Shown here in pieces: positions 31,534-51,802 of a stretch of 64,000 nucleotides of DNA. Source of the DNA: an uncultured delta proteobacterium (GTDB taxonomy: Bacteria; Myxococcota_A; Polyangia; Polyangiales; Polyangiaceae); assembly GCA_963731595.1 (NCBI GenBank), contig CAVSWE010000003.1:44948-108947 (forward strand), given 5' to 3'. The translations under genes and the position numbers were made by a program. Below the pieces are notes generated by a model, which was not told where the DNA came from, did not search any database, and worked only from the letters and a program-made list of their open reading frames with translations. Positions within the stretch are counted from its first letter, which is position 1. Each line of letters opens with the position of its first letter.

Positions 31534-31644
31534 TGGCTCTCCTCCGAGGGTCTCGAGGAGATCCGTACCGGACGAACGTTCGTCCCCAGTTGATTTGGAT
31601 CAAGTGGCCGGATCGGCGGTCGTGACATGACCGGAGGAGACGCG

Positions 31645-32540: not shown

Positions 32541-32553
32541 GACCGCGGTCCGC

Positions 32554-33072: not shown

Positions 33073-35351
33073 GCGCCGAAGGCCTCGTCGGACGGCGCGG
33101 ACGCCGCGGAGACCTCGCGCGCCGCGTTCGCGGCGAGGTCGCCTTCACCGACGATCTCGAGCTGCCCCGCATGCTGCACGCGAAGCTCGTGCGCTCGCCG
33201 CACCCGCACGCTCGCATCGTGCGCGTCGACGCGTCGCGCGCGCTCGCGCTGCCCGGCGCGGTCGCGGTCCTCACGGGCGACGCGATGCCGGCGCGCTTCG
33301 GCGTCATCCCGTGGACGCCCGACGAGCACGCGCTCGCGATCGGCGAGGCGCGCTTCGTGGGCGACGCGGTCGCGGCGGTCGCCGCGCGCGACGAGCGAAC
33401 CGCGTTCGAAGCCGCCGCGCTCGTCCGAGTCGAATACGAGGTGCTGCCCGCCGCGACGACGCTCGACGCGGCGATCCGCTCGCCGGAAATCGGCCTCGGA
33501 CGCGACCGCAAAGACAACGTCAGCAAGGCCGTGAGCCTCGCGTTCGGCGACGTCGACGAGGCGTTCGAGGTCGCCGACGTCACGATCGAAGGCGAGTATT
33601 TCTTCGACGGGAGCGCCCACGCGCCCATCGAGCCGCACTGCGCGATCGCGCGCTACGACGCGAGCGGTCTGCTGACGCTCTGGTCGACGACGCAAGTTCC
33701 CCATTACGTGCACCGCGAGCTCTCGCGCGTCCTCGGCGTCTCGCCGGCGCGCATCCGCGTCGTGCAGCCGCCGGTGGGGGGCGCGTTCGGGGGAAAGAGC
33801 GAGCCCTTCGGTCACGAGATGGTCGTCGCGAAGCTCGCGATGACGACGGGGCGCCCGGTGAAGATCCTCCTCACGCGCGAAGAGGAGTTCTACGTCCACC
33901 GCGGCCGGCACCCGATGCGCATGCGAATGCGCGCCGGCGCGAGCCGCGACGGAAAGCTCCTCGCGCTCGACGCACGCACCGACATCGACGGCGGCGCGTA
34001 CTCGTCGTTCGGTCTCGTGACGACGTACTACTCGGGGCAGCTCCTCACGATCCCGACGGTGCCCGCGACGTACCGGTTCTCGTCGACGCGCTACTTCACG
34101 AACAAGCCGCCCTGCGGGCCGAAGCGCGGACACGGCAGCGTGCAGCCGCGCTTCGCGCTCGAGATCACGCTCGACAAAATCGCGACGGCGCTCGGACTCG
34201 ACCCGATCGAGCTACGCCGTCGAAACTCGGCGGAGTCGAGCTCGACGACCGTGAACGGAATGACCGTCACGTCGAACGGGCACCTCGAGTGTCTCGCGCG
34301 CGTCGAGGCCGCCTCGGGCTGGAAGGAGCGCCGCGGAAAGCTGGGATTCGGTCGCGGCCTCGGCGTCGCCTCGTCGGCGTACATCTCCGGGACGAACCAC
34401 CCGATCTACCCGAACGAGATGCCGCAGAGCGCCGTGCAGCTCAAGGTCGACCGCTCCGGCGTCGTCACGGTCTTCAACGGCGCGAGCGAGATCGGGCAAG
34501 GCACCGACGCGATGCTGGCGACGATCGTCGCCGAGGAGCTCGGGCTCGACCTCGGCTGCGTGCGCGTCGTCTCGGCGGACACCGATTTGTGCCCGGTCGA
34601 TCTCGGCGCGTACTCGTCGCGCGGGACGTTCATGAACGGAAACGCGTGCCTCTCGGCGGCCAGGCAAATCAAGGAGAAGCTCGTCGAGGCAGTGGCGGCG
34701 TCGTTCGAGGTCGCGCCGCGCGACGTGTTCGTGTCGCGCGGCTTCTTGTGCGTGCGCGGAGACGAATCGCGCGCGGTGCCGGTCGACGAAGCGATTCGCC
34801 TCGCGGAGGCGAAGCACGGCACGCTCGGCGCCGTCGGCTGGTACAAGTCGGCGCCCGACCTCGGCGGAAGATACCGCGGCGGCACGATCGGCGCGTCGCC
34901 GGCGTACTCGTTCACGGCCCACGTGGCGGAGGTGGCGGTCGACGTGGAGACGGGCGTCGTGGAGGTCGTCCGGGTGTGGTGCGCGCACGACTGCGGCAAG
35001 GCGATCTGTCCGACGCAGGTCCTCGGGCAGATCGAGGGGAGCGTCTACATGGGCGTCGCCGAGGCGCTCTTCGAGGGGCACACGGTCGACGCGAACGGGA
35101 TGCACCACGGCCCCAACTTGCTCGACTACCGCATCCCGACGAGCCTCGACGTGCCGGCGATCGACGCGATGATCGTCGAGTCGATCGACCCGGGCGGCCC
35201 GTACGGCGCGAAGGAGGCGGGCGAAGGTCCGCTTCACTCGAGCATCCCCGCCGTCGTCAACGCGATCTTCGACGCGATCGGCGTCCGGATCGACACGCTC
35301 CCGGTCGCGCCGGAGCGCGTCTTGCGCGCGCTACGCGAAAGGGGGACGTGA
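33069..35351 (+). CDS. Molybdopterin-binding large subunit of xanthine-dehydrogenase family (HcrA-like, candidate 4-hydroxybenzoyl-CoA reductase alpha)
   Basis: 760 aa. 'RVVQPPVGGAFGGK', 'GASEIGQGTDAMLATIVAEELG', 'ESIDPGGPYGAKEAGEGP'. GTG overlaps the upstream TGA. Confidence 0.75.
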   Translation: MSAEGLVGRRGRRGDLARRVRGEVAFTDDLELPRMLHAKLVRSPHPHARIVRVDASRALALPGAVAVLTGDAMPARFGVIPWTPDEHALAIGEARFVGDAVAAVAARDERTAFEAAALVRVEYEVLPAATTLDAAIRSPEIGLGRDRKDNVSKAVSLAFGDVDEAFEVADVTIEGEYFFDGSAHAPIEPHCAIARYDASGLLTLWSTTQVPHYVHRELSRVLGVSPARIRVVQPPVGGAFGGKSEPFGHEMVVAKLAMTTGRPVKILLTREEEFYVHRGRHPMRMRMRAGASRDGKLLALDARTDIDGGAYSSFGLVTTYYSGQLLTIPTVPATYRFSSTRYFTNKPPCGPKRGHGSVQPRFALEITLDKIATALGLDPIELRRRNSAESSSTTVNGMTVTSNGHLECLARVEAASGWKERRGKLGFGRGLGVASSAYISGTNHPIYPNEMPQSAVQLKVDRSGVVTVFNGASEIGQGTDAMLATIVAEELGLDLGCVRVVSADTDLCPVDLGAYSSRGTFMNGNACLSAARQIKEKLVEAVAASFEVAPRDVFVSRGFLCVRGDESRAVPVDEAIRLAEAKHGTLGAVGWYKSAPDLGGRYRGGTIGASPAYSFTAHVAEVAVDVETGVVEVVRVWCAHDCGKAICPTQVLGQIEGSVYMGVAEALFEGHTVDANGMHHGPNLLDYRIPTSLDVPAIDAMIVESIDPGGPYGAKEAGEGPLHSSIPAVVNAIFDAIGVRIDTLPVAPERVLRALRERGT

Positions 35352-35352
35352 C

Positions 35353-36357
35353 GTGCTCCCGCTGCCCGCCTTCGACTTTCACGCGCCGCGGTCGATCGCC
35401 GAAGCGCTCGCGCTGCTCGAGCGGTGGGGCGGCGAGGCGGCGCTCGTCGCCGGCGGCACCGATCTGCTCCCGAACATGAAGCGCGGCCTCGCGTCGCCGC
35501 GGCACCTCGTGTCGCTGCGCGACGTCACCGGGCTCTCGAGCATTCGCGTCGACGGGGCGTGGCTGCACGTCGGCGCCACGACGTCGCTCGGCGCGATCGA
35601 CGCGAGCGCCCTGGTGCGCGAGCGCGCCGCGGCCCTCGCGGAGGCGGCGGGCGCGGTGGGCGGACCGCAGCATCGGACGATGGGCACGCTCGGCGGCAAC
35701 CTCTGCCTCGACACGCGATGCCGCTTCTACGATCAATCGCACTTCTGGCGGAGCGCGCTCGGCTTTTGCTTGAAGAAGGACGGAACGGCGTGTCACGTCG
35801 TGCCGGGCGGGCGGCGATGCGTGGCCGCGGCCTCGAACGACACGGCGACAGCCGCGATCGCCCTCGACGCGACGATCGAGCTCGCGAGCCCGCGCGGACC
35901 GCGGAGCGTCGCGGCGCGCGACTTCTACACGACCGACGGAGCCGCCAACACCGTTCGCGCGCCGGACGAGATCGTCGTGGCGCTCCGCGTGCCGCTCGAG
36001 GCGCGGGCGAGCGCTTACGAGAAGCTCCGGCGCCGCGGCGCGATCGACTTCCCGCTGCTCTCGGTCGCCGCCGCCGCCGTGGTGCGGGAGGATCGCGTGG
36101 CATCGCTCGAGATCGTCGTCTCCGCGCTCGCCGCGCGCCCGCGCCGAGTCGGCGTCGCGGGCGCGCTCGGCCTCGCGGCCGCCGCAGTGCCGATCGAAGC
36201 CCTCGCGCAGAGCGCGAGACGAGAGTGCACGCCGCTGTCGAACGTCGACGGAGACTCGGCGTGGCGCAAAGAAATGGTCGGCGTGCTCGTCCTGCGCGCG
36301 CTCGCACGCGTGGGGCTCGGCGCGGCAGGTAGCCGGAGGGAGGTAGAACCACGATGA
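35353..36357 (+). CDS. FAD-binding subunit (CoxM/HcrB-like) with cysteine-rich insertion loop (putative extra [4Fe-4S])
   Basis: 'ALVAGGTDLLPNMK' FAD motif. Insertion 'GNLCLDTRCRFYDQSHFWRSALGFCLKKDGTACHVVPGGRRCVAA' carries 5 Cys, as in 4-hydroxybenzoyl-CoA reductase beta. Confidence 0.7.
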   Translation: MLPLPAFDFHAPRSIAEALALLERWGGEAALVAGGTDLLPNMKRGLASPRHLVSLRDVTGLSSIRVDGAWLHVGATTSLGAIDASALVRERAAALAEAAGAVGGPQHRTMGTLGGNLCLDTRCRFYDQSHFWRSALGFCLKKDGTACHVVPGGRRCVAAASNDTATAAIALDATIELASPRGPRSVAARDFYTTDGAANTVRAPDEIVVALRVPLEARASAYEKLRRRGAIDFPLLSVAAAAVVREDRVASLEIVVSALAARPRRVGVAGALGLAAAAVPIEALAQSARRECTPLSNVDGDSAWRKEMVGVLVLRALARVGLGAAGSRREVEPR

Positions 36358-37076
36358 TCATCCATCCAATGAAGACGGTCCGGGAAATCGTCCTCGGGGT
36401 CGGCGACGCCGCCTGCGTGTTCGACGAGCTCCACATCGATTACTGCTGCCGCGGCGCGAAGACGCTCGCCGACGCGTGCGCCGAGGTCGGCGTCCCGATG
36501 TCCGTCGCGATCACGCTGCTCGAGCACGAGGCGGTGCGTCGCGAGCCCCCGCCCGAGGCGGCGTGGGTCGACGCGCCGCTCGCCGAGCTCGTCGACTTCG
36601 TGGAGCACGACCACTATGCGTTCACGCGGGAGAAGATCGCGGCGCTGGCGCACCGCGCCTCGAACGTGCGGCGCGCCCACGGCGCTGCGCACCCGGAGCT
36701 CGTGCGCGTCGAAGAGCTCGTCTGCACGCTCGTGCGGGAGCTCGCGCCGCACATCGACCAAGAAGAGCGCGTCGTCTTTCCCGCGATCCGCGCGCTCGCC
36801 GAAGACAGCGCGATCCCGCCCGAGCTCGGCTCGCTCGTCCACGAGATGGTGTGCCAGCACGAGGGCATCGGCGCGCTCCTGCGACAGCTCCAGGGGGCGA
36901 CCGCCGACTACCTCGTGCCGTCCGACGCGAGTGCGCCCTTCGAGTCGCTCTACCAAGACCTCGACGCCCTCGAGCGCGAGGTTCGACATCACGTTCACCT
37001 CGAGAACAACGTGGTCTTTCCGCGGGCGTTGGCGCTCGCGGGCGAGCCGCGCTCCTCGTGGTACCCTGAAGGTTGA
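36354..37076 (+). CDS. ytfE: Iron-sulfur cluster repair di-iron protein (RIC/YtfE/ScdA)
   Basis: 'KTVREIVLGVGDAACVFDELHIDYCCRGAKTLADACAE' (ScdA_N), then hemerythrin-like H/E motifs ('HDHYAFTREK', 'HEMVCQHEG', 'HHVHLENNVVFP'). ATG overlaps the hcrB stop. Confidence 0.8.
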   Translation: MIIHPMKTVREIVLGVGDAACVFDELHIDYCCRGAKTLADACAEVGVPMSVAITLLEHEAVRREPPPEAAWVDAPLAELVDFVEHDHYAFTREKIAALAHRASNVRRAHGAAHPELVRVEELVCTLVRELAPHIDQEERVVFPAIRALAEDSAIPPELGSLVHEMVCQHEGIGALLRQLQGATADYLVPSDASAPFESLYQDLDALEREVRHHVHLENNVVFPRALALAGEPRSSWYPEG

Positions 37077-37079
37077 CGC

Positions 37080-37742
37080 ATGGAAACGCGTAGCTGCCCC
37101 GATTGTCCTGCGTCGCGCATCGGCCTGCTCGGCGAGATGCTCCCGCACGCGCAGCACGCGTGCGCGTTTCGCGTCGCCACGGTGAGCGAGCGCGCGACGA
37201 TCCCGCACGCGTGGTTCGGCCGCTACGGGCTCGGTCTCGTGCGTCGCGGCATTCTCGTTCGCCAGCGAGTCGACGGGAGCGGTCGCGCGACCGCGGTCGA
37301 CGTCGTCGGCCCCGGAGGCGCGCTCCTGCTCGACGCGGGGAGCGAAGGCGACGTCTCCGGCTACGCGGCCGCCGAGGCGATGGTGTGCTTGTGTCCTTCG
37401 GAGCGGCTCGACGAGTCGTGCAGCTCGCTGCCGACCGCGCGCGACATGATGCGCCTCCAGTCGGTCGCGATCGAGCGGATGGATCGCCTCGCCGACGCCC
37501 GCAATCGGCCGACCGCCAGCGCGCGGCTCGCGGCGCTCCTCGCGGCGCTCGGCGACGTGCTCGCGCCGCCGCGGAAGCTCGACGTCATCCCGCCTCAGCT
37601 CCAGCGGCGCGATCTCGCCGCGCTGCTCGCGCTTCGCCACGAGTCGGTGTCGCGCGCCCTCGCGCAGCTCGAACGTACGGGCGCGATCAAGCGCACCCGC
37701 GACGGCATCGAGCTCCGCGACCGCGAAGCGCTGCGCGCCTGA
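37080..37742 (+). CDS. Crp/Fnr-family transcriptional regulator with N-terminal Cys pair
   Basis: C-terminal HTH 'RRDLAALLALRHESVSRALAQLERTGAIK'. N-terminal 'SCPDCPAS'. Central cNMP-like beta-roll. Confidence 0.7.
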   Translation: METRSCPDCPASRIGLLGEMLPHAQHACAFRVATVSERATIPHAWFGRYGLGLVRRGILVRQRVDGSGRATAVDVVGPGGALLLDAGSEGDVSGYAAAEAMVCLCPSERLDESCSSLPTARDMMRLQSVAIERMDRLADARNRPTASARLAALLAALGDVLAPPRKLDVIPPQLQRRDLAALLALRHESVSRALAQLERTGAIKRTRDGIELRDREALRA

Positions 37743-39025
37743 TCAGAACTGGATCGTGCGCTCCTGGACGCCCAGCGCGCGGAGCGACTGGCGCGGGCGG
37801 TAGAACTCCTTCCACAGATGGAGGTAGCCCTCGAGCAGACGATCGGGCGTCATGCGCGCCGGCCGGAAGACGACGTTCGCGTCGTTGTAGAGCGACCAAT
37901 CCCGCGTGAGCAGCCTGTCCGCGGCGACGAGCTCGTGGAAGACGGGCGTGCCCGGGTACGGCGTCATGATCGCGAACTCGGCCTTGCGGATCTTCGCTTC
38001 GTCGGCGAGCTCGAGCATCCGATCGAAGACCCCCTCGTCGTCGTCGTCGTTGCCGACGAGGAACGACGTGTACGGCTCGATGCCGTGATCGAGCGACTTT
38101 CGCACGGCGTCGAGCGCGAGCTGCCGCGCCTTGCCGTCCTTGCCGGTGAAGGCGGCCCGCGTGATCGGATCGAAGCCGCCGACGAGGTAGAACATCTTGA
38201 TGCCCGCCGAGCGCATGCGCCGGAGGACGTCGTCGTCGGTCGCGAGGATCATCGGCATGCTCACGCCGATGTAGCTGACCGGCGCGGCGCGCCCGGCGAA
38301 CGCGTCGACGACGCGCATGAAGCGCTTGTTCGCCGAGGAGAAGAACGCGGTGTCCTCGGTGAACGAGCCGAGCTTGCCGCGCGCGGCGAGCGCCTCGATC
38401 TGTCCGACGACGTGCTCGGTGGGGTAGTAGCGCATGCGCTTGCCCATCACCTCGGGGAGCGCGCACGCCGAGCAGCGCAGCGGACAGCCGCGCGACGTCT
38501 GGACGGGGTAATCGTCGGGCGCGAAGAGCCCGCCCTCTTTGTCGGTGTACAAATCGACGCGCGGCAGCGGCAGCGTCGCGAGATCGACCGGCGCCTCCGC
38601 GCGGTAGCGAGGCGCGAGCGCGCCGCGACGGAAATCGTCGAGGACGCGAGGCCAGATGCCGTCGCCTTCGCCCACGACCACCGCGTCGGCGTGCGCGCCG
38701 GCCTCGTCCGGGCGCATCGTCGGGAAGATTCCGCCCATGACGACCTTGCGGCCGCGCGCGCGAAACGCATCGGCGAGCTCCATCGCGCGCATCGCCGACG
38801 GCGTGAAGCAGGAGATGGCGACGAGATCGACGTCGTCGTCCAGGCCGACGTCCTCGAGGCGATCGTCGCGAAAATCGAGCTCCCAATCCTTCGGCGTGAC
38901 CGCGGCGAGGCACGCGATGCCGAGCGACGGCGGGCCGAAGTACTCGTTGCACGGCACCTCCTGTCGCAGCTCGGGGTGCGCCTCGGCGTGGCGGCGGAAT
39001 TTCGGATAGACGAAACGGACCTTCA
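37743..39025 (-). CDS. B12-binding radical SAM enzyme (class B rSAM)
   Basis: RBS GAGGAGG. GTG overlaps the ACAD stop (GTGA). B12-domain 'VDLVAISCFTPSAMRAMELADAFRARGRKVVMGG'. rSAM cluster 'TSRGCPLRCSACA' (Cx3Cx2C). Confidence 0.75.
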
Positions 39026-40504
39026 CGTGACCTCCTCGTAAAGTCGCTCGGCGATTCGCTCGCCGACGACCTCTTGCTCGACGTCGGCGATTCGATCGAG
39101 CTCGGCGGTCCCGCCGCGGGCGAGACTTCGAACGGCGGCGTACGCGAGGTCCCCGTCGGCCGGTCCCGCGGCGAGCGCGGTCGCCGTCGCGGCGAAGTGC
39201 GCGACGAGCGCGCGCGCGAGGCGAACGAGGAGCGTCTGCTTTCCGATGACGGCCGCACCGTGCACGTCGCGCAGCGCTTCGCTCACCACGTCGAGCTCGT
39301 CGGCGAGCGCGTTGCAAGGCGCCGCGAGGTCCGGGTGGACGAGGGCGGCGGCGTCGAGTCGCTCGCTGCGAGCGCGCCGCGTGAGACGAGCCGCCGCGAT
39401 GCGGAGCAGCAGCACGTCGTTCGCCCCCTCGAAGATGCGCGTCACGCGGCAGTCGCGGAGCAGGCGGGCGACGCCGGCGTCCTCGAGCACGCCGAGCGCG
39501 CCGTGCAGCTGAATCGCGCTGTCGCACGCCTCGAACGTGCGCTCGCTCGCGAACACCTTCGCCGCCATGGTCAGGCTCTCGGCCGCTTTGTCGCGCGGGA
39601 CGGCGAGCGCCGCCCGGCCGACGAGCGCGCGCGCCGCGAAGAGCGTCGCGGCCATCTCGGCGACGCGCGCCTTCACCGCGCCGAAGTCCGCGAGGCGGCG
39701 ACGGAACTGGACGCGCGTCGTCACGTGCGCGAGCGACGCGTCGAGCGCGGCGCGCATGGTGCCGAGGCAGCCCGCGGACATCAGCGTGCGTCCCCACGCG
39801 AGCACGCCGTACGCCCCGTCGAGGCCGCGGTCGGCGGCGCCGAGCAGGTGCGACGCCGGCACACGCGCGTCCGAAAGCGAGAGGGTCACGGTCGACGACG
39901 CGCGAATTCCGAGCTTGTCTTCTTCGGCGCCGATCTCGAGCCCGGGCGTCGTCCGCGGCACGAGCACGAGCGCGTGGCCTCGCGCGCCGGTCCGCGCGAG
40001 CACCGTGTAACAGCCCGCGAGGCCGCCGTTGGTCACGTAGCTCTTCTCGCCGTCGAGGACGATGGCGTCGCCGTCGAAGCGGGCCGTCGTGCGCATCGCC
40101 ATGAGGTCGGAGCCGGCGCACGCTTCGGTCGCGGCGAACGCGCCGAGGATCTCGCCGGTCGCGAGGCGCGGCAGCCACTCGCGCGCGACGTCGGGCCGCG
40201 CGCCCGTCACGAGGGCTCGCGTGCCGAGCCCGGTGTGAAGTCCGACGCACGTCGCGACCGAGCGATCCCATCGCGCGAGCTCCTCGATCGCGGCGCACGC
40301 GTCCGACAGCGAGAGCCCCGCGCCGCCGAATTCGACCGGGAGCGCGACGCCGAAGAGCCCGAGCTCGGCGAGCCCATCGAGGACCTCGCGCGGGATTCGC
40401 CCGGCCCGCTCGATGGCGCCGGCGTCGAGGTGCGCGCGCGCGAACCGCCGCACCTCGGCGACGAGCATCGCGCGCTCGTCGTGCTCCTCGCTAAGCGCGT
40501 ACAC
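39023..40504 (-). CDS. Acyl-CoA/acyl-ACP dehydrogenase family protein with ~120-aa C-terminal extension
   Basis: 'ILGAFAATEACAGSDLMAMRTTA', 'KSYVTNGG', 'RIFEGANDVLLLRIA'. ACAD fold plus extra C-terminal region. Confidence 0.75.
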   Translation of the reverse strand: MYALSEEHDERAMLVAEVRRFARAHLDAGAIERAGRIPREVLDGLAELGLFGVALPVEFGGAGLSLSDACAAIEELARWDRSVATCVGLHTGLGTRALVTGARPDVAREWLPRLATGEILGAFAATEACAGSDLMAMRTTARFDGDAIVLDGEKSYVTNGGLAGCYTVLARTGARGHALVLVPRTTPGLEIGAEEDKLGIRASSTVTLSLSDARVPASHLLGAADRGLDGAYGVLAWGRTLMSAGCLGTMRAALDASLAHVTTRVQFRRRLADFGAVKARVAEMAATLFAARALVGRAALAVPRDKAAESLTMAAKVFASERTFEACDSAIQLHGALGVLEDAGVARLLRDCRVTRIFEGANDVLLLRIAAARLTRRARSERLDAAALVHPDLAAPCNALADELDVVSEALRDVHGAAVIGKQTLLVRLARALVAHFAATATALAAGPADGDLAYAAVRSLARGGTAELDRIADVEQEVVGERIAERLYEEVT

Positions 40505-40766
40505 CGGTCGCAGCCTCCGGGACCCGCATCGAGCGCTCGACGAACGCGCAGGCGTCCTGGAAGGTCACGATGTCCATCGCGTCGTCGATGTCGACGTGGA
40601 TCCCGAGCTCCTCGCTGATCGTCGAGAGGAGCTCGAGGCTGCCGAGCGAGTCCATCCCGAGGTCCTCGCGCAAGCGACTGTCCGGGCGCACTCGCGCCCC
40701 GTCGATTTCGAGGATCTCCGCGACCAACTTCTGCATGCGAGGGCGCACTTCTTTTTCAGCGAGCAT
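40491..40766 (-). CDS. Acyl carrier protein
   Basis: 'LREDLGMDSLGSLELLSTISEELG' phosphopantetheine-attachment motif (DSL). Confidence 0.7.
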   Translation of the reverse strand: MLAEKEVRPRMQKLVAEILEIDGARVRPDSRLREDLGMDSLGSLELLSTISEELGIHVDIDDAMDIVTFQDACAFVERSMRVPEAATGVRA

Positions 40767-41769
40767 GTTCGTTCCGTCCTTGGTGAGCGGGCGCCGAGCG
40801 TTTTGCGCCGAGGCGAGTCATCCAGTCGTGCGTGCGGTCGAGCGCGTCGTCGAGGCTCGTCCAGCGAAGGCCGAGGTCGCGCTCGGCGCGCGCGCTCGAG
40901 ACGGGCTTGCCCATCGCGACGAGGTCCACGAGCTCGCGCGGAAACGGGACGCGCGAGCGGCGCGGCTCCGCTTCCGCCTCGGCGGCGCTCGCGAGCGCGC
41001 GCGCCTCCGCGAGGGTCACACGCGGCGCGTCGAAGGCGACGCCGTAACGAGCCGCCGCGCGCTCGAGCAGCGCGTCGAAGCGAACGTCGTGGCCCGCGAC
41101 GCAATAGCGAGCGCCGCGCGCCCGGATCGCGGCGACGTGCGCGGCCGCCGCGTCGTCCACCGAGAGCACGTTGATCCATCCGTCGATGCGAAACGGGATC
41201 CTGCGATGCAGGAGCGCGGCGAGGACGCCGTTCGTGCCCAGGCGGTAGTCGCGCGGTCCTATGCAGCCGCCGAGGAGGAGCGACACGGCGTCGAGCCCGC
41301 GGGCGCGCGCGCGATCGAGCTCGCGCTCCATGGCCTTCTTCACAGTCGGGTAGACGCCCTCGCTCGCGTCCGGCGGCGCGCAGTCGTCCTCGTCCGCCGT
41401 CTCGCCGTTTCGCGGCGCGCCGAGCGCCGCGACCGACGAGCTGTAGATCATCCGAGCGCCTTGCTCGAGCGCCGCGTCGCACGCGTTTCGCAGGCCGCTC
41501 ACGGCCGTCTCGAGCGCCCCGCGCGGATCGGTCGAGTAACGAGGATAATGACCCGCCGCCATGACGACGACGTCGCGATCGCGCGCCGCGCTCGCGAGCG
41601 ACGCGCGATCCTCCAGCGACGCCCACACTTTCTCGATCGGGCGCTCGCCGAAGAGCACCGTCGGCGTCGACTTGCGCCGCGTGACGCGCACCTCGTGGCC
41701 TGCCGCGAGCAGCGCGTCGACGACGCGCAGCCCCACGAACCCGCTCGCTCCGATCACGAGCGCGCGCAT
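40756..41769 (-). CDS. NAD(P)-dependent epimerase/dehydratase-family (extended SDR) reductase
   Basis: 'MRALVIGASGFVGLRVVDALLAAGHEV' Rossmann. 'YPTVKKAME' YxxxK. ATG overlaps the FAAL stop (ATGA). Confidence 0.7.
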   Translation of the reverse strand: MRALVIGASGFVGLRVVDALLAAGHEVRVTRRKSTPTVLFGERPIEKVWASLEDRASLASAARDRDVVVMAAGHYPRYSTDPRGALETAVSGLRNACDAALEQGARMIYSSSVAALGAPRNGETADEDDCAPPDASEGVYPTVKKAMERELDRARARGLDAVSLLLGGCIGPRDYRLGTNGVLAALLHRRIPFRIDGWINVLSVDDAAAAHVAAIRARGARYCVAGHDVRFDALLERAAARYGVAFDAPRVTLAEARALASAAEAEAEPRRSRVPFPRELVDLVAMGKPVSSARAERDLGLRWTSLDDALDRTHDWMTRLGAKRSAPAHQGRNEHAR

Positions 41770-43481
41770 CAGCTCGCGCCCCCCGCGGCCAGGAGCCGCG
41801 CGCACTCGCGCCGCCGCGCCTTGCCGCTCGTCGTCTTCGGTACGGCGCCGATGGGCCAGAGGTGGATCTCCTCGACGCGCACGCCAAGCACCGCGAGGAT
41901 CTCGCCCTTGAGCATGCGCGCGGTCTCGCCGCGCTCGTCCTCGCCCTGGAGCGCGGTCTCGGCGACGAGGACGATCTCCTCGGTGCCCTTGTCCTCGTTG
42001 CGGCGTCCGAGGGCGACGACCGCGCCGGGGCGCAGGTGCGCAACCTCGACGGCGACGCGCTCGAGATCGTACGGGTACACGTTTCGTCCCGCTTGGATGA
42101 TGACGTCCTTCGCGCGGCCCGTGACGTAGAGCTGACCGCGGTCGACGAAACCGACGTCGCCCGTCTGAAGCCAACCGTCGGCGTCGAGGACGGCGGCGCT
42201 CGCCGCGTCGTCGCCGAAGTAACCGCGCATCACCGACTCGCCTCTCACGCGTATGCCGCCGAGCCGTCGCTCCTCGAGGAGCCGGCCGGCGTCGTCCACG
42301 ATCGCGATCGACGTGCCCGCGACGGGATGGCCGACGCACGCGAGCTCTTGCGCGGACGTGCCTTCGCCACGGGCGATCTCGTGGCGCTCGAGCGCGCGAC
42401 GGTCGAGCGTCGCCACGTTGTTCGCGTCCGCGCGCGTCGGAAAGGTCACCGCGAGCGTGCACTCGGCCATGCCGTAGACCGGGAGCGACACGCCGCTCGC
42501 GAGGCCGCGGCTCGCGTACGCCGACTCGAACCGGCGAATCGTCGACGGCTGGACCGGCTCGGCGCCGTTGAGCGCGCAGCGGAGCCGCGAGAGATCGCCG
42601 TCCTCGAGACGGCCCGCGCGTGCGGCGGCCATTTCGTAGGCGAAATTCGGCGCGGCGGTGATCGTCGCCCCGACGCGCGCGGCGAGCGCCATCCAGCGCT
42701 GCGCCCCCATCGCGAAGTACTCTGGCGCCGCGACGTGGATCGGGTACGGGCGACAGACGCCGGTCAACAGCACGCCGACGAGGCCCATGTCGTGGAACAG
42801 CGGCAGCCAGCTCACGCCGACGTCGGACGCGCCGAGCGAGAGGCCGTGGGCGATCGAAAACGCGTTCGAGACGAGCGCGCGGTGCGTGATGACGACGCCC
42901 TTGGGTTTGCCGGTCGTGCCGGAGGTGTATTGCAGGAGCGCGATGTCGTCGCCGCCGACGGATGCGGCGAGCGCGTGGGTCGTCGCGACGTCGAGCTCGG
43001 AGAGCGCGTCGCGGTCGGCCGGCGTGACGATCGGCACGCCGAAGCTCGGGATCGCGGCGGCCGAGAGCGCGGCGATCACGCGCGGGACCGTGACGACGAC
43101 GCTCGGCCTCGCGTTCGCGACGATGGTGGCGAGGTTTCGGAGGAACGGCTCGGTCGAGCCGAACGTCATCGGCGTCGCGAGCGGAACGGGCGCGGCGCCC
43201 GAGAGCGCGGCGCCGAGGAGCGCCGTCGCGAACGCCTCGCCCGTCGGCAGTAGAATCACGACGCGATCGCCGCGCCGCGCGCCGTGGCGACGAAACAGCG
43301 CGGCCCACCGGCGAGCGCGCGCGAGCGCGTCTCGCGCGTCGAGTCGAACCTCGCCGTCTCGTCCGCCGTGAAACGTCAGGAACGGCGCGCCGTCGCGCGC
43401 GGCGCCCTCGATCGCAGCGGCGAGCGTGTCGTGGGAAGGCCGGCACGCGACGGGGCTCGAGACGACTGCCGGGGCGACCAT
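41769..43481 (-). CDS. Fatty acyl-AMP ligase / AMP-dependent synthetase (FAAL-like)
   Basis: 'LLQYTSGTTGKPKGVVITHRAL', 'YGMAEC', 'GWLQTGDVGF', '...PKTTSGKARR'. 570 aa. Confidence 0.75.
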   Translation of the reverse strand: MVAPAVVSSPVACRPSHDTLAAAIEGAARDGAPFLTFHGGRDGEVRLDARDALARARRWAALFRRHGARRGDRVVILLPTGEAFATALLGAALSGAAPVPLATPMTFGSTEPFLRNLATIVANARPSVVVTVPRVIAALSAAAIPSFGVPIVTPADRDALSELDVATTHALAASVGGDDIALLQYTSGTTGKPKGVVITHRALVSNAFSIAHGLSLGASDVGVSWLPLFHDMGLVGVLLTGVCRPYPIHVAAPEYFAMGAQRWMALAARVGATITAAPNFAYEMAAARAGRLEDGDLSRLRCALNGAEPVQPSTIRRFESAYASRGLASGVSLPVYGMAECTLAVTFPTRADANNVATLDRRALERHEIARGEGTSAQELACVGHPVAGTSIAIVDDAGRLLEERRLGGIRVRGESVMRGYFGDDAASAAVLDADGWLQTGDVGFVDRGQLYVTGRAKDVIIQAGRNVYPYDLERVAVEVAHLRPGAVVALGRRNEDKGTEEIVLVAETALQGEDERGETARMLKGEILAVLGVRVEEIHLWPIGAVPKTTSGKARRRECARLLAAGGAS

Positions 43482-43776
43482 GCGGGCGCAACTCTCACGT
43501 ACGCGCGTCGTGAAGCGGATGACTTAGGTCAACACCGCAGGCGCGTAGGCTGCAACGCACGCGGAATGACGATCGCACGGCCCAACAGGAGTACGCGTGG
43601 TCTTCTGCGAGCGCGGCCGCGCCGCCCTCTCCATCGACGCCGACCGCGCCGCGCGCCGCATCGTTCGCGCGGTCGAGCGCGGCGACCGCCGGCTCGTCTA
43701 CACGCTCCCCGCGCAGGAGCCAAGCGCTCGGCGCGCGGCACGGGCAGAATTGATGCCCGCGGCGCGGGCGTGTGTC

Positions 43777-44856
43777 ATGCTCGTCGGGATGAGGGACGGG
43801 AAGCTCTCGCGCGCGGACCGCGTGACCTTGCGGCGCGTGCTTTGGTCCGTCGTGCCGAGCCTCCTCGCCGTCTCGTGCGGGACGTCGCCGACCACGTCGG
43901 ACGGAGGCACGGATGCCGCGCCCGACAGCGTCGTCGGATGCGGCGGATGCCAATGCGAGGGGGGCGCGAGCGTCTTTTACGCGACGAGCTACGACGTGTG
44001 CCCTTCCGACGACGCCGGCTTGGACGCGAGCGACGCCGCCGCGAGCGACGCCGACGCCGCGAGCGACGCCGGGACGTGTTACGCGAGCTGTGATTACGCG
44101 TGCGCTGCGACCGCGCCTGCCGGGACCTCGAGCGTGTGCGTCGGCGAGGACGACGCCGGTGTCGCGCGCGTCGCGCAGTGTCGCGCAGATTCCTTCCCCT
44201 GCACCGGTCGGCGCACCGCGGGGCTCGACGAGCCGAGCGGAGCGACCCGGGCGCTCGGCGCGACGCTCGCCCGCTACGCGTGGCTCGAGGCCGCGTCCGT
44301 GCACGCGTTTCGCCGGCTCGCGCGCGAGCTCCGCGCGTACGGGGCTCCAGCCGAGCTCGTCTGCGCCGCGCGCGCCTCGGCCCGCGATGAAATCCGCCAC
44401 GCGCGCGCGATGCGCTCGCTCGCCCGCACGCACGGCGCTCGCGTGGAGCCGGTCGCTGCCCGAGCCGACGGCGTTCGCGACCTCGAGACCATCGCGCGGG
44501 AGAACGCGGTCGAAGCGTGCGTGACCGAGACGTTCGGCGCGCTGCTCGCGGCGTGGCAAGCCGAGCGCGCCGAGGACGCTGGAGTGCGAGCCGCGATGCG
44601 CGCAATCGCGCCCGACGAGGTTCGTCACGCCTCGCTCGCGTGGGCCGTGGCCGCATGGATCGAGCCGCGCCTCTCGCCCGCCGCGCGCGCGCGGGTGCGC
44701 CGCGCGCGGGCAGACGCCGCGCGCAAATGTGTGCAAAATGCAACGAATGAGCTCGGCCGCGAAATCGCGGGTCCGCTCGGCCTGCCGAGCGCTGCCGCGG
44801 CGCGCTCGCTCGCGTGCGGGCTCGCGCGGGGCGGCGTGTGGCCGCGCGCGGCGTGA
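43777..44856 (+). CDS. Secreted lipoprotein with Cys/Asp-rich N-terminal region and C-terminal ferritin-like domain
   Basis: 'VVPSLLAVSCGTS' lipobox. 'VVGCGGCQCEGG...CYASCDYACA'. C-terminus 'ARDEIRHARAMRSLA...APDEVRHASLAWAV' with ExxH pairs. Confidence 0.45.
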   Translation: MLVGMRDGKLSRADRVTLRRVLWSVVPSLLAVSCGTSPTTSDGGTDAAPDSVVGCGGCQCEGGASVFYATSYDVCPSDDAGLDASDAAASDADAASDAGTCYASCDYACAATAPAGTSSVCVGEDDAGVARVAQCRADSFPCTGRRTAGLDEPSGATRALGATLARYAWLEAASVHAFRRLARELRAYGAPAELVCAARASARDEIRHARAMRSLARTHGARVEPVAARADGVRDLETIARENAVEACVTETFGALLAAWQAERAEDAGVRAAMRAIAPDEVRHASLAWAVAAWIEPRLSPAARARVRRARADAARKCVQNATNELGREIAGPLGLPSAAAARSLACGLARGGVWPRAA

Positions 44857-44872
44857 TAACGTCGGAGGGGAA

Positions 44873-45175
44873 ATGGCGGGAGAGCGTTTCGAGGAGATCT
44901 GGGTCGAAGCCGGCGAGCAGCGCCTCTGCGCGCTCATCAACGGCGATCGCGGTTGGCTCATGTACCTGCCGGCGGCCGGCGAGAGCGGCTTCAGCTCGCG
45001 CAACCCCGACTACGCCGGGCCCGCCGACGCCATGATCGAGTACTGCCTGAGCAACGGCCAGCGCGATTTCCACCCTGCGTCGTGGGCGTACCCGGTCGAC
45101 GTCGTGCACCGCGCGCTCGACTTCTTCGAGGCCGAGGAGAAGCGTCCGCCGTTCATCGAGTGGCACGCCGACTGA
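44873..45175 (+). CDS. Small cytoplasmic hypothetical protein (~100 aa), immunity-protein-like
   Basis: RBS GGAGGGG. 'RFEEIWVEAGEQRLCALINGDRGWLMYLP...IEYCLSNGQRDFHPASWAYPVDVVHRALDFF'. Family assignment uncertain. Confidence 0.4.
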   Translation: MAGERFEEIWVEAGEQRLCALINGDRGWLMYLPAAGESGFSSRNPDYAGPADAMIEYCLSNGQRDFHPASWAYPVDVVHRALDFFEAEEKRPPFIEWHAD

Positions 45176-45328
45176 GCCGAGCGAGCGCCCCGCCGGGCGT
45201 CAACCCGTCACGGCGCGCCAGCGCGAGGTCATCTCGAAGGCGGCGCGCAGCGCGCGCAGCGTCGCGGCGGTCGTCACGAGCTCGCGCTCGCCGAGCCCGC
45301 GCGACACCGCGCCGCCGCGTGGCTCCTC

Positions 45329-45580
45329 ATGCTTCGCGCGGCGCGCCTCCTCGACGACGGCGAGCTCGCCGTCTCGGAGACGAGCATGGCGAAGCTCTTC
45401 GCGACCGACGCGTGCGGGCGCGTCGTCGACCGCGCCGTGCAGGTGCACGGCGGCTACGGCCACTCGCGCGAGTACGCCGTCGAGCGGCTCTACCGCGACG
45501 CGCGCGTCACGCGAATCTACCAGGGCACGAACGAAATTCAGCGCATCGTCGTCGCGCGGGAGCTTCTCCGCGCGCCCTGA
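45329..45580 (+). pseudogene. Acyl-CoA dehydrogenase C-terminal remnant
   Basis: 'SMAKLFATDACGRVVDRAVQVHGGYGHSREYAVERLYRDARVTRIYQGTNEIQRIVVAREL' is only the last about 85 aa of an ACAD. No upstream ACAD body. Confidence 0.5.
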
Positions 45581-45958: not shown

Positions 45959-46011
45959 ACGTGGTGGATTGCCACGGTTGCGCGGCGCCGTCGCCGTGAC
46001 ACAACCGTGCG

Positions 46012-46791
46012 ATGCCGTTCGACCCGGACGCCCTCGATCGCCGTGACGCGCACGCCGTTCGCGCGCTCTTGCCGCTCGTCCGTCGGATCAATGCATATTA
46101 CATGCATCTCCGGCGCGAGGGGACCGAGCACCTCGAGGGCGTCGCCGGTGAGCCGGCGCTGTTCGTCGGCAATCACAACGGCGGGATCACGGGGCCGGAC
46201 GTCGCGTGCACGCTCGGCACGCTCTGGGACGCGTTCGGCGCCGAGCACCCGACGTACGCGCTCGCGCACGACTTCGTGATGCGGCAGCTCCGCGCCGTCG
46301 GGCGCGCGATCCAGCCGTACGGCGCGCTCCGCGCCTCGCCGGAGAACGCGCTGCGGGCGCTCGCGGCGGGCGGCAAGGTCCTCGTCTACCCGGGCGGCGA
46401 CATCGAGGCGTTTCGCCGGACGCGCCACCGCGACGCGATCGTCCTCGGCGAGCGCACGGGCTTCGTGCGCGTCGCGCAGCGCGCCGGCGTTCCGATCGTT
46501 CCGATCGTCGCGCAAGGCGCCCACCGCTCGGCGTTCATCTTCCACGAGGGCGAGGCGATCGTACGCGCGCTCGGGCTCGATCGCCGCGCGCGCGTGAAGC
46601 GCTTCCCGCTCGCCCTCGCCCTCCCGTGGGGCCTCGCGATCGGGCCGTGGCTCCCGTACATGCCACTGCCGTTTCCGGTGAAGCTCCGCGTGCTCGAGCC
46701 GATTCGGCCGGGGGCGCGCGACGATCCGCGAGAGGTGCGCGAGCACGTGCGCGCGCGAATGCAGCGCGCGCTCGACGAGATGCGCGCGTGA
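46012..46791 (+). CDS. Lysophospholipid/1-acylglycerol-3-phosphate acyltransferase-like protein
   Basis: 'LFVGNHNGGITGPD' (HX..D-type motif), 'VLVYPGGDIEAFR'. Confidence 0.55.
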   Translation: MPFDPDALDRRDAHAVRALLPLVRRINAYYMHLRREGTEHLEGVAGEPALFVGNHNGGITGPDVACTLGTLWDAFGAEHPTYALAHDFVMRQLRAVGRAIQPYGALRASPENALRALAAGGKVLVYPGGDIEAFRRTRHRDAIVLGERTGFVRVAQRAGVPIVPIVAQGAHRSAFIFHEGEAIVRALGLDRRARVKRFPLALALPWGLAIGPWLPYMPLPFPVKLRVLEPIRPGARDDPREVREHVRARMQRALDEMRA

Positions 46792-51800: not shown

Positions 51801-51802
51801 CC

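Follow-up and report, generated by a model that had tools for sequence, protein, structure and literature searches.

The window analyzed here, a stretch of 64,000 nucleotides, carries at 37743-43481 a real, tightly packed operon of five minus-strand genes. The first gene encodes a fatty acyl-AMP ligase (FAAL; 41769-43481; 570 aa) and is followed by genes for an extended SDR (40756-41769; 337 aa), an ACP (40491-40766; 91 aa), an ACAD (39023-40504; 493 aa), and, as the last gene, a class-B radical SAM enzyme (rSAM; 37743-39026; 427 aa). All five open reading frames were confirmed, their codon-position GC is typical of real genes, and public gene calls from a 345,914-bp contig give the same five proteins, identical in sequence and start. 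Every domain call was borne out by a Pfam search. The chain of five genes described in an earlier note on this DNA is therefore present, with the domains that it had assigned to each product. Its account of the junctions was accurate for the 11-nt overlap of SDR and ACP and the 4-nt overlap of ACAD and rSAM (GTGA), but FAAL and SDR meet in TGATG, a 1-nt overlap, instead of ATGA, and the overlap of ACP and ACAD is 14 nt, not 13. In an NCBIfam scan, no protein of the cassette reached the cut-off of any curated family.

The FAAL matched the Pfam AMP-binding domain with 209.5 bits, and its best NCBIfam models were FAAL subfamilies (395 bits, under the cut-off of 600); MbtM was a weak match (288 bits; cut-off, 621). 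The closest solved structures are E. coli FAAL 3PBK (283 bits), to which it aligns almost without gaps across the FAAL-specific insertion region, followed by FadD32, FadD23, and the Legionella FAAL. The ACP (PP-binding, 51.9 bits) matched ACP-type NCBIfam models, all under their cut-offs, and its translation shows a DSL phosphopantetheine-attachment motif (LGMDSLGS). In the ACAD, all three ACAD domains were found by Pfam, and 11 cassette homologues all keep the catalytic Glu of RIFEGAN. A profile of these 11 proteins scored 432 bits against VLCAD and 411 against ACAD9, while ordinary ACADs reached at most 344; the NCBIfam model MbtN matched the cassette protein weakly (46 bits; cut-off, 700). 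The C-terminal extension, which had been noted earlier as unusual, is the additional domain that long-chain dehydrogenases of the VLCAD/ACAD9 type normally have, and the long bacterial ACADs 2Z1Q and 3OWA align with the protein into this region. We presume that this VLCAD/ACAD9-type protein acts as an acyl-ACP dehydrogenase.

Judged by its sequence, the SDR is a DFR/CCR/3beta-HSD-like reductase. Pfam assigned it Epimerase (88 bits) and 3Beta_HSD (45 bits), and its GxxGxxG motif, Ser111, and Tyr140-x3-Lys144 are invariant across 25 homologues. The top NCBIfam model was HpnA (168 bits; cut-off, 368), whereas thioester-reductase models scored 32 bits (TIGR01746, E = 9e-8, a weak match). Homologues bear the JGI name dihydroflavonol-4-reductase, and many also match NAD_binding_4, the fatty-acyl-reductase domain. 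Because the protein lies far nearer to HpnA/3beta-HSD/DFR-type models than to thioester reductases, its step is ambiguous; reductive release of an aldehyde from the thioester would be an equal possibility.

The rSAM exceeded the Pfam cut-offs for both B12-binding (42.9 bits; cut-off, 32.1) and Radical_SAM (38.3 bits; cut-off, 29.5), and its cysteine motif, C181-x3-C185-x2-C188, is invariant. An AlphaFold2 model (pLDDT 91.7) places a Rossmann domain ahead of a barrel, so the cobalamin-type fold anticipated earlier is supported by domain search and by the class-B fold of the model alike. The Foldseek neighbors of the model are AprD4 (the best; TM 0.75), MgmA/QCMT, TsrM, CysS, and TokK, and the solved protein nearest by sequence is the methylase QCMT/MgmA. 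The earlier note had asked whether HMM classification would place the enzyme with HpnP-like methyltransferases. By HMM, it is not HpnP/HpnR-like. Scores against characterized families were all weak and similar, at 37 to 62 bits (BchE, 55; AprD4, 45). The best NCBIfam model, TIGR04072 ("ladderane"), gave 61.5 bits (cut-off, 360), which rules out membership in that family. Strong conservation of the N-terminal Rossmann domain throughout the family suggests a bound cofactor. The chemistry is probably C-methylation. AprD4, however, is a diol dehydratase that works without cobalamin, and since it is the best structural match, methylation is not established.

A scan of species genomes retained 80 related loci, 54 of which have enough flanking sequence for gene-order counts. 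The order FAAL-SDR-ACP-ACAD-rSAM is identical in 30 of these 54, and ACAD adjoins rSAM in 52; the search for joint synteny that the earlier note had proposed thus found the cassette co-conserved elsewhere. Genes around the cassette differ from locus to locus and are otherwise unrelated. FAAL and SDR are fused at one locus (L049), as are SDR and ACP in another case (P0383), and FAAL is absent in cis from ∼15% of loci. Across the same loci, identity is 63 to 84% for rSAM versus 44 to 74% for FAAL and SDR, which suggests a housekeeping-like constraint on the better-conserved rSAM, a family of >2,500 clusters at 90% identity. All 80 loci come from metagenome-assembled genomes (MAGs), mostly of uncultured Myxococcota. 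Judging by isolate names, the source environments of many of these MAGs are groundwater, stratified lakes, sludge, and sulfidic springs.

Related variants carry an extra KS, an Spt/BioF-like synthase, or a second rSAM. The second rSAM occurs in 10 related loci; among solved proteins, only the tetraether synthase GDGT-MAS is related to it. In a variant arrangement with an rSAM 52 to 59% identical, a BioF/Kbl/Spt-family gene directly follows ACP-rSAM-ACAD (L049, L053, L059, and L066); the best NCBIfam model for its product is serine palmitoyltransferase (385 bits; cut-off, 640), and BioF scored 346 bits (cut-off, 426). This synthase is found both with and without the SDR, a pattern more in keeping with two alternative off-loading routes than with a single fixed pathway. 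More distant rSAM relatives (35 to 40% identity) are fused to a FabF-like KS, a CrtI-like desaturase, or an MMPL transporter, and these fusions suggest that the wider family belongs in acyl-ACP or lipid metabolism. Within 10 kb of the cassette, neither the window nor any of the 80 loci contains an NRPS, PKS, or condensation gene.

Upstream of the operon, a 115-bp divergent intergenic region contains a predicted FNR/FixK-type palindrome, TTGACCTAAGTCAT (43519-43532), which has 7 of 8 half-site bases of the pattern TTGA-N6-TCAA and is centered ∼44 bp ahead of the FAAL start. Such a box precedes the first cassette gene at 16 of 20 close-clade loci, compared with 26 of 297 (9%) other genes at the same loci (Fisher p = 1.7e-12), and it also precedes accessory genes for an FA_hydroxylase (L001) and the second rSAM (L032). 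It is absent from the more distant clade, where LuxR-type neighbors are found instead. Given the divergent promoter, the box in the window could also serve the upstream hypothetical gene.

A candidate regulator is encoded at the other end of the operon. This plus-strand gene for a Crp/Fnr-family protein (37080-37742; 220 aa; HTH_Crp_2, 49.7 bits) is convergent with the cassette, its stop codon abutting that of rSAM. The protein gave weak FixK/Fnr NCBIfam matches. Cys6, Cys9, Cys28, and Cys103 are kept in six cassette-adjacent homologues (36 to 45% identity), and the recognition helix HESVSRAL is of the FNR type (E--SR). At one locus (L021), a Crp/Fnr homologue lies inside the cluster, between rSAM and FAAL. 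Immediately upstream of the regulator gene in the window is a plus-strand gene for a RIC/YtfE-type di-iron Fe-S cluster repair protein with Hemerythrin and ScdA_N domains (36354-37076; TIGR03652, 176 bits; cut-off, 204.7). RIC homologues lie within 9 kb of the cassette at four loci (L004, L009, L046, and L063), and we regard RIC as a loosely associated neighbor. A second predicted FNR-type box, the perfect TTGATTTGGATCAA (31590-31603), occupies a divergent promoter, and the plus-strand operon behind it ends with the RIC and Crp/Fnr genes. The four conserved cysteines and the E--SR helix make low-oxygen control of the cassette by an FNR-type regulator plausible. The oxygen-dependent control that had been suggested from the neighboring gene alone thus gains from these residues and from the box in 16 of 20 relatives.

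We consider it likely that the operon is self-contained and serves to modify a long-chain fatty acyl group bound to its dedicated ACP and that, in this clade, an FNR-type iron-sulfur regulator controls it, the cue probably being low oxygen. By homology, FAAL would adenylate a free long-chain fatty acid and transfer it to the cassette ACP. The VLCAD-like flavoenzyme may then oxidize the acyl-ACP to 2-enoyl-ACP, as its catalytic Glu and characterized sets of FAAL, ACP, and acyl-ACP dehydrogenase suggest; the combination of FAAL, a stand-alone ACP, and an acyl-ACP dehydrogenase has been shown experimentally for NocC/NocI (PMC9486936). The rSAM would carry out oxygen-independent C-H functionalization of the tethered chain, most likely methylcobalamin-dependent C-methylation, and the CysS and TokK structures among its Foldseek neighbors hold pantetheinylated ligands. 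For the DFR/CCR-like SDR there are two candidate roles: reduction of the modified enoyl or keto intermediate, or release of the thioester, which would yield an aldehyde or an alcohol. The operon probably yields a modified building block for membrane or envelope lipids under conditions in which lipid-modifying enzymes that need oxygen fail; it is less likely to provide a starter unit for a natural product. The earlier note did not recognize the five-gene combination as a described pathway, and we likewise found no published description of it in a review of lipid-modifying radical SAM enzymes to 2025 (PMC13459092), a review of B12-dependent ones (PMC12931638), and further full-text searches, although the component enzyme kinds are already known.

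A trivial explanation, prompted by the fact that the scan kept MAG contigs only, would be chance adjacency of the five genes or misassembly of a metagenomic contig. The order, however, recurs in dozens of assemblies made independently in different studies, and the start/stop overlaps, the fusions, and the shared upstream box likewise speak against chance. The adjacency is far beyond chance; the synteny data refute this explanation, and its probability is negligible. A different doubt touches nothing but the rSAM step and leaves the operon model intact. Together with the SDR, the enzyme might use radical chemistry to dehydrate or rearrange an acyl-ACP that is oxygenated or unsaturated, or to form a C-C bond on it, after the model of AprD4 with AprD3 or of BchE- or Tes-type chemistry. 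AprD4, the top Foldseek match, works with an SDR partner, AprD3; BchE and AprD4 score like the methylases, and the second rSAM of 10 related loci has GDGT-MAS as its only solved relative. On the other hand, most characterized class-B enzymes are methylases (PMC12931638), the sequence-nearest solved protein is one of them, and the conserved Rossmann domain suggests a bound cofactor. We view non-methylase chemistry as possible but doubtful.

Other destinations for the acyl-ACP can also be weighed. In sphingolipid clusters of the Caulobacter type, genes for an AMP-binding acyl-ACP synthetase and an ACP accompany one for an epimerase-family SDR (CerR). FAAL, ACP, and SDR could take the roles of acyl-ACP synthetase, ACP, and reductase in such a pathway, with the cassette feeding tailored acyl-ACP to an alpha-oxoamine synthase (Spt/BioF/Kbl) encoded elsewhere for a sphingoid-base-like or amino-lipid. 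The four variant loci with a synthase gene agree with this, but no Spt-like gene occurs in the window or at any same-order locus, the putative synthase falls under every cut-off, and its presence with or without the SDR suits two off-loading routes better, leaving this outcome quite improbable. Also unlikely, if a little less so, is a split ElbD-like route in which FAAL, ACP, and a reductase supply ether lipids or wax esters with a (modified) fatty aldehyde or alcohol while ACAD and rSAM tailor the chain. Myxococcota MAGs commonly hold ElbD homologues (PMC11868695), the FAAL-SDR and SDR-ACP fusions would suit it, and so would a DFR/CCR-like SDR with a weak thioester-reductase match and many NAD_binding_4-matching homologues. 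A PlsC/DAGAT-type acyltransferase gene lies 2.5 kb away (46000-46791), with homologues near the cassette at two loci (L040 and L002); it is, however, on the opposite strand behind unrelated genes, no acyltransferase or alkyl-DHAP synthase is conserved alongside the cassette, and the SDR is much nearer to HpnA/3beta-HSD. Priming of a secondary metabolite (lipopeptide or polyketide), as by MbtL/M/N in mycobactin or by the noc/cly clusters (PMC9486936), would explain the trio of FAAL, ACP, and ACAD, a hallmark of such modules, and MbtM and MbtN are among the weak NCBIfam matches. Yet both scores are far under the cut-offs, assembly-line genes are missing within 10 kb at every locus, and the cassette is very widely conserved and moves as a unit among unrelated neighborhoods; we rate this explanation as highly unlikely.

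The proposed tailoring of an ACP-bound acyl chain by this cassette has partial parallels in several known systems. FNR controls oxygen-independent radical SAM isoenzymes such as HemN (versus HemF) and BchE (versus AcsF). Like these, the cassette has a radical SAM enzyme behind a predicted FNR-type box and next to the gene for a Cys-containing Crp/Fnr regulator, and BchE is among its weak HMM matches (55 bits). ElbD, reportedly described by Lorenzen et al. in 2014 as a multidomain Myxococcus ether-lipid enzyme (adenylation-ACP-reductase-acyltransferase), follows the same logic in the same phylum, activating a fatty acid, tethering it to ACP, and reducing it. In ElbD, however, one polypeptide carries all the domains, among them an NAD_binding_4-type reductase and an acyltransferase, and ACAD and rSAM are lacking, while the cassette SDR is DFR/HpnA-like and no acyltransferase is conserved beside it. 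CysS and TokK/ThnK share the two-domain fold of the rSAM and provide a precedent for a B12-dependent radical SAM enzyme acting on a thioester-tethered substrate, but they are only 14 to 17% identical to it, exceed it by ∼200 residues, and carry an additional C-terminal domain; they act on natural-product intermediates of the aromatic or beta-lactam type instead of fatty acyl chains. The "ladderane" cluster of anammox Planctomycetota likewise combines a B12-domain radical SAM enzyme with a dedicated ACP and lipid enzymes (PMC13459092). Its parts are amxACP, FabZ/FabF variants, a phytoene-desaturase-like enzyme, and the radical SAM enzyme of TIGR04072, and the ladderane enzymes are themselves uncharacterized; the FabF-like and CrtI-like fusions of rSAM relatives involve the same kinds of partner, whereas the cassette, from Myxococcota, has FAAL, ACAD, and SDR in place of FabZ, FabF, and desaturase. 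The first three activities proposed for the cassette, namely adenylation of a fatty acid, its loading onto a dedicated ACP, and desaturation by an ACAD-family enzyme, recur in mycobactin MbtM-MbtL-MbtN and in NocC/NocI with ClyA-ClyB (PMC9486936). Such sets supply NRPS, PKS, or KS assembly and have neither a radical SAM enzyme nor a DFR-like SDR; the cassette has no assembly line nearby, contains both of these enzymes, and differs further in its VLCAD/ACAD9-type ACAD with a C-terminal domain.

Codon-position GC analysis singled out five consecutive minus-strand genes, at 37743-43481, in a part of the window where G+C content is ∼72% and long spurious open reading frames (ORFs) are consequently common. 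In order of transcription, these encode a 570-residue AMP-binding ligase, the fatty acyl-AMP ligase (FAAL) (41769-43481; Pfam AMP-binding, 209.5 bits); a 337-residue extended SDR (40756-41769; Pfam Epimerase/3Beta_HSD); a 91-residue carrier protein, the ACP, with a visible DSL motif (40491-40766; Pfam PP-binding); a 493-residue acyl dehydrogenase-family protein (ACAD) with all three Pfam ACAD domains (39023-40504); and a 427-residue radical SAM enzyme, the rSAM (37743-39026; B12-binding [PF02310], 42.9 bits against a cut-off of 32.1; Radical_SAM, 38.3 bits against 29.5). Public gene calls on a 345,914-bp contig contain all five proteins with identical start codons. The overlap chain described in the earlier note stands for the 11-nt SDR/ACP overlap and the 4-nt GTGA joining ACAD to rSAM, but the FAAL/SDR junction is TGATG, with 1 nt shared, rather than ATGA, and ACP and ACAD overlap by 14 rather than 13 nt. 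A sigma-70 scan of 37000-44000 returned zero promoter-like sites, terminator-like sites in the same interval were no commoner than chance, and Rfam at gathering thresholds found no riboswitch or other RNA element in the 64-kb window. None of the five proteins, nor any of ten more distant rSAM relatives, reached an NCBIfam cut-off, and the cassette proteins therefore receive no equivalog name.

Counted as 90%-identity clusters, relatives of the rSAM number more than 2,500 at an E value of ≤1e-10; the best 120 of these are 65 to 100% identical to it, and all the named ones come from Myxococcota MAGs. Two large contigs carry the identical five-gene order between unrelated flanks. A scan of one genome per species, queried with a nine-sequence rSAM alignment, returned 131 relatives (the closest 78% identical), the best 80 of which are all from MAGs, mostly labelled Polyangiaceae, Polyangiales, Sandaracinaceae, Myxococcales, or "Deltaproteobacteria." Gene order was counted in the 54 loci with enough flanking sequence: the exact FAAL-SDR-ACP-ACAD-rSAM order occurs in 30, the order is kept with FAAL not in cis in 8, rSAM lies ahead of ACAD in 13, FAAL follows rSAM in 1, and rSAM stands alone in only 2. 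Clustering of all flanking ORFs revealed no further family in more than 10 loci. Parts of the cassette are also fused to one another (FAAL-SDR in locus L049, SDR-ACP in protein P0383). We conclude that the adjacency of the five genes is not due to chance, and their reading as a single cassette is borne out by co-conservation.

The surroundings of the cassette are more variable. In relatives, the genes that flank it in the window (a hypothetical gene at 43597-44856, the Imm1-like ORF, GFA, an acyltransferase, and the gene at 46793-47863) are not kept with it, the only exceptions being acyltransferase matches near the cassette in L040 and L002. In frame behind the Imm1-like ORF (44729-45175) and its stop codon is a lone 134-residue fragment of an ACAD C-terminal domain (45176-45580, plus strand; Pfam profile positions 56-150), which seems to be a gene remnant because no N-terminal or middle ACAD domains lie nearby. 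A COX15/CtaA heme A synthase gene recurs near the cassette in L004, L005, L014, L023, L024, and L035, adjoining it in L005, L014, and L035, and a tryptophanase-like beta-eliminating lyase recurs in nine loci, including L032, L033, L034, L046, and L063. Paralogues of the rSAM, 64 to 66% identical, occur without ACAD, ACP, SDR, or FAAL at L015:10001-11302, L018:9908-11302, and L029:1786-3225; the L018 and L029 genomes also carry a full cassette. In L018 and L029, the paralogue is preceded by a pair of conserved ORFs that match nothing in Pfam or NCBIfam, and L015 has only the first of the pair.

Elsewhere in the window, a minus-strand gene at 55791-63845 encodes a 2,684-residue protein with GH94 supersandwich and catalytic domains and a glucoamylase-like domain, resembling the giant synthases or phosphorylases of cyclic beta-1,2-glucan. 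At 47864-49591 (plus strand), a PHP domain-containing PolX-family polymerase is encoded near an ATP-dependent DNA ligase (51428-52879, plus strand), with a GH5 cellulase gene on the opposite strand between them. The stretch at 15400-18100, with 51 to 60% G+C against ∼70% around it, weak codon-position periodicity, and no Rfam match, may be foreign or noncoding DNA.

Upstream of the FAAL start lies the box TTGACCTAAGTCAT (43519-43532), a 7/8 match to the FNR/FixK half-sites TTGA-N6-TCAA. When boxes were allowed at most one mismatch and had to fall within 250 bp upstream of a gene start, they preceded FAAL in 16 of 20 close-clade loci compared with 26 of 297 other genes of the same loci (Fisher p = 1.7e-12), and several of the FAAL-upstream boxes are perfect palindromes. 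In L021, where the operon begins with SDR, the box precedes SDR. Perfect boxes also lie ahead of the L001 FA_hydroxylase gene and the second rSAM gene of L032. In the more distant clade, the box was not found and LuxR-type neighbors occur instead.

The Fnr-type regulator gene reported beside the cassette is indeed adjacent, though convergent, with abutting stop codons. This Crp/Fnr-family gene (37080-37742, plus strand; HTH_Crp_2, 49.7 bits) encodes the recognition helix HESVSRAL, in which E--SR is the FNR-type motif. Its residues C6, C9, C28, and C103 are conserved in 7/7 sequences, including six cassette-adjacent homologues at 36 to 45% identity; the C-x2-C-x18-C spacing is unlike that of E. 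coli FNR. FNR-type regulators combine such a Crp-family helix with N-terminal and central cysteines, and their target boxes resemble TTGAT-N4-ATCAA. In L021, the cluster itself contains the regulator gene. A second, perfect box (31590-31603) occupies the divergent promoter of the plus-strand operon that the regulator gene ends. Given the box enrichment, helix motif, conserved cysteines, and second box, predicted control of the cassette by an Fe-S Crp/Fnr regulator is well supported at the sequence level. Low oxygen may be the signal, which would fit an oxygen-sensitive rSAM and the habitats suggested by the MAG names.

The plus-strand operon is tight (31627-37742) and shares its divergent promoter with an enoyl-CoA hydratase gene. 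In its first gene, unusually, an HMGL-like aldolase barrel is fused to a CoxS-type 2Fe-2S subunit; next come xanthine-dehydrogenase-family molybdopterin (second gene, to 35351) and FAD (35353-36357) subunits and a RIC/YtfE Fe-S repair protein (36354-37076), which precedes the regulator. The regulator and rSAM stop codons abut with zero intergenic bases (37740-37745, TGA followed directly by TCA), and no terminator-like structure was found, so that transcription of each FNR-box operon would run on into the other. In the window (43482-43532) and in L003, L004, L011, L021, L032, and L040, the boxes are centered ∼39 to 47 bp upstream of the predicted starts. Class II FNR sites lie at -41.5; if the boxes act as such sites, either the mRNAs have little or no leader or the true starts are further downstream.

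The top NCBIfam model for the ligase is an FAAL subfamily (395 bits, under the curated 600), and its closest solved relatives are FAALs (E. coli 3PBK, with 283 bits, followed by FadD32, FadD23, and the Legionella FAAL 3KXW); by these scores, it is nearer to FAALs than to acyl-CoA ligases. CoA ligation by FAALs is blocked by a specific N-terminal-domain insertion of ∼20 residues, and we take 3PBK residues 323-425 to be the region that contains it. Across these residues, the cassette ligase aligns with gaps of only one or two residues, in a comparison with the FAAL structure alone. The ACP gene lies two genes downstream of FAAL, a position conserved in related loci.

In the ACAD, Acyl-CoA_dh_N, _M, and _1 each score over the Pfam cut-off, and the catalytic Glu (RIFEGAN) is invariant among 11 cassette homologues. 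The earlier note had regarded the C-terminal extension as unusual. A cassette-ACAD profile, however, placed human VLCAD (432 bits) and ACAD9 (411 bits) ahead of ordinary short ACADs (≤344 bits), and when aligned with 2Z1Q and 3OWA, which are long ACADs from bacteria, it extends to profile positions 479-498, into the C-terminal domain; the extension is therefore assigned as a VLCAD/ACAD9-type domain. The single-sequence Pfam ACAD9-ACADV_C match is 17.5 bits, under the cut-off. Domains of this type are helical, span ∼100 to 180 residues, and accompany long-chain substrates. The NCBIfam MbtN model scores 46 bits, with a cut-off of 700. We infer from the constant adjacency of ACP and rSAM, and from experimental precedents (PMC9486936), that the ACAD substrate would be an ACP thioester.

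The SDR retains G7, G10, and G13 (GxxGxxG) and S111, Y140, and K144, all invariant in 25 homologues. Homologues are named dihydroflavonol-4-reductase by JGI, and many also match the fatty-acyl-reductase domain NAD_binding_4. Fused in some genomes to FAAL or ACP, the DFR/CCR-like enzyme is predicted to act either in reductive release or as a keto/enoyl reductase.

All three CX3CX2C cysteines of the rSAM (C181, C185, and C188) are retained without exception, both in 17 diverse homologues and in 40 close ones. An AlphaFold (AF2) model (pLDDT 91.7, pTM 0.90) predicts an N-terminal region of alternating strands and helices followed by the rSAM core, and its Foldseek neighbors are AprD4 (TM 0.75), MgmA/QCMT, TsrM, CysS, and TokK; all significant matches of this architecture are class-B enzymes. 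Together with the PF02310 match, the model and these neighbors agree with the cobalamin-binding-type fold proposed from the sequence. The nearest solved protein by sequence is 9CCB (E = 7.5e-11), the glutamine C-methyltransferase QCMT/MgmA. C-methylation via methylcobalamin is the commonest class-B reaction, and CysS and TokK provide class-B precedent for methylation on pantetheine-tethered substrates. AprD4, the top structural match, has the same domain as the rSAM yet is not known to use cobalamin or to methylate, and its partner is an SDR, AprD3. Because this top match is nonmethylating and has an SDR partner, we propose C-methylation through methylcobalamin only tentatively, at a little short of an even chance.

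Exhaustive HMMER searching of 1.84 billion cluster representatives placed the rSAM in a wider family of 1,051 representatives at an E value of ≤1e-30, within which cassette-clade proteins make up about one 50%-identity cluster and relatives continue without a break at 33 to 47% identity. Ten relatives at 35 to 47% identity reached no NCBIfam cut-off (TIGR04072, 41 to 71 bits), and the family, ∼1,050 representative clusters at this threshold, is without a characterized member. Some relatives are fused to a FabF-like ketosynthase (KS; P0131 and P0137), a CrtI/phytoene-desaturase-like domain (P0143), or an MMPL transporter (P0214), and the uncharacterized anammox "ladderane" cluster has the same kinds of partners (PMC13459092). 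In light of these fusion partners and this likeness, the whole family looks lipid- or acyl-ACP-associated.

In a variant clade, whose rSAMs are 52 to 59% identical to that of the window, the order is [KS]-FAAL-[SDR]-ACP-rSAM-ACAD. Directly after ACP-rSAM-ACAD in L049, L053, L059, and L066 is a BioF/Kbl/Spt-family alpha-oxoamine synthase (e.g., L059:12936-14129), for which the best NCBIfam model is serine palmitoyltransferase (385 bits, under the cut-off). That it occurs both with SDR (L049) and without SDR (L066) suggests two alternative routes for off-loading the tailored acyl-ACP, namely, reduction or Claisen condensation with an amino acid. A second, non-B12 rSAM of ∼410 residues lies beside the cassette in ten loci (L032, L038, L040, L041, L044, L051, L052, L056, L057, and L063; e.g., L063:11303-12529); among solved proteins, it is related only to the archaeal tetraether synthase GDGT-MAS/Tes (7TOL, E = 4e-7), and of the NCBIfam models Tes fits it best, with a score of 63 bits that falls far short of the cut-off. 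L001 carries an extra FA_hydroxylase gene, and FabF-like KS genes were called near the cassette in L016, L061, L062, L067, and L072. The window itself holds no Spt-like, second rSAM, KS, CtaA, or FA_hydroxylase gene.

Several more familiar assignments were considered and rejected. A role for the rSAM in hopanoid biosynthesis, as the methylase HpnP or HpnR or as HpnJ, would accord with its matches to hopanoid models, but these are far under the curated cut-offs (HpnR, 37.4 bits against 650; HpnJ, 38.8 against 577.6), and HpnP is absent among NCBIfam matches at an E value of ≤0.01. The HpnP/methyltransferase-like classification entertained in the earlier note thus found no footing in any curated family. 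The TIGR04072 "ladderane" model, describing a B12 radical SAM of lipid biosynthesis, scores higher at 61.5 bits but against a cut-off of 360; BchE, MgmA, and AprD4 follow at 55, 52, and 45 bits. Likewise, HpnA is the best NCBIfam model for the SDR, yet its 168 bits are under the cut-off of 367.65, and an assignment as a thioester reductase domain (TIGR01746) is opposed by 31.8 bits against 213.

Rival readings of the whole cassette were also weighed. Against beta-oxidation-like catabolism stand the dedicated ACP, an FAAL instead of a CoA ligase, the B12-type rSAM, and the lack of a thiolase or hydratase. OleABCD-like chemistry finds an OleD match of only 42 bits, and the ligase is an FAAL, not OleC-like. 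A bacterial sphingolipid cluster is suggested by the Spt-like gene; that gene, however, is present only in four variant-order loci, and no homologue of the L059 Spt/BioF-like protein was found anywhere in the 64-kb window.

We retain acyl-ACP tailoring as the preferred reading. By homology and precedent, FAAL would load the ACP, and ACAD would then alpha,beta-desaturate the acyl-ACP. MbtL/M/N are one precedent for FAAL loading and acyl-ACP desaturation. A FAAL/ACP/acyl-ACP dehydrogenase module has been shown experimentally for NocC/NocI with ClyA/ClyB (PMC9486936). Since rSAM and ACAD are inseparable neighbors, the rSAM probably acts on the enoyl intermediate, or the enoyl is formed after the rSAM has acted. 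The SDR would contribute reductive release or keto/enoyl reduction. We favor a role in membrane or envelope lipids over one in secondary metabolism, given the variable flanks, the strong conservation of the rSAM, and the lack of a neighboring NRPS or PKS.

A widely conserved operon of rSAM and acyl-ACP dehydrogenase, seemingly FNR controlled, would define an oxygen-independent remodelling of fatty acids in a Myxococcota branch that is large, mainly uncultured, and known from groundwater, sediments, stratified lakes, and sludge. For rSAM enzymologists, it offers a compact five-protein system that could be reconstituted; for the geochemistry of lipids, it offers a candidate marker gene for those that are branched or otherwise modified and form under low oxygen. 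A far more specific reading, which we consider very unlikely, is that the cassette carries out oxygen-independent methyl-branching (or another C-C modification) of an ACP-bound fatty acyl chain and is the source of the extra mid-chain methyls in branched or "overly branched" membrane lipids (brGDGT-type or related) of uncultured low-oxygen Myxococcota. The Tes/GDGT-MAS-like second rSAM in ten related loci is a point in its favor, genomic data have prompted the proposal that Myxococcota make such lipids (PMC11868695), and the enzymes that methylate branched GDGT-type lipids at mid-chain are not among the rSAM enzymes reviewed to 2025 (PMC13459092). If true, this would be the first known cobalamin-type rSAM system to methyl-branch an ordinary ACP-held fatty acyl chain without oxygen.

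To our knowledge, the known lipid-modifying rSAM enzymes act on isoprenoid ethers, hopanoids, or polyketide chains. A 2026 review of such enzymes covers Tes, Mss, Gms, GrsA/B, Gmm, Cds, HpnH/J/P/R, Jaw5, and the ladderane candidates (PMC13459092). The cassette gene combination is absent from it and from a 2026 review of B12-rSAM enzymes (PMC12931638), and reviews of 2025-2026 list no rSAM acting on a plain fatty acyl-ACP (PMC13459092, PMC12931638). The impression that no described pathway has this composition is upheld by the mainly open-access full texts searched. The kinds of components, in turn, are known: FAAL/ACP/acyl-ACP dehydrogenase modules, class-B rSAM enzymes, extended SDRs, and FNR regulons. 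The five-gene combination appears to be new, and it is built from parts of kinds already known.
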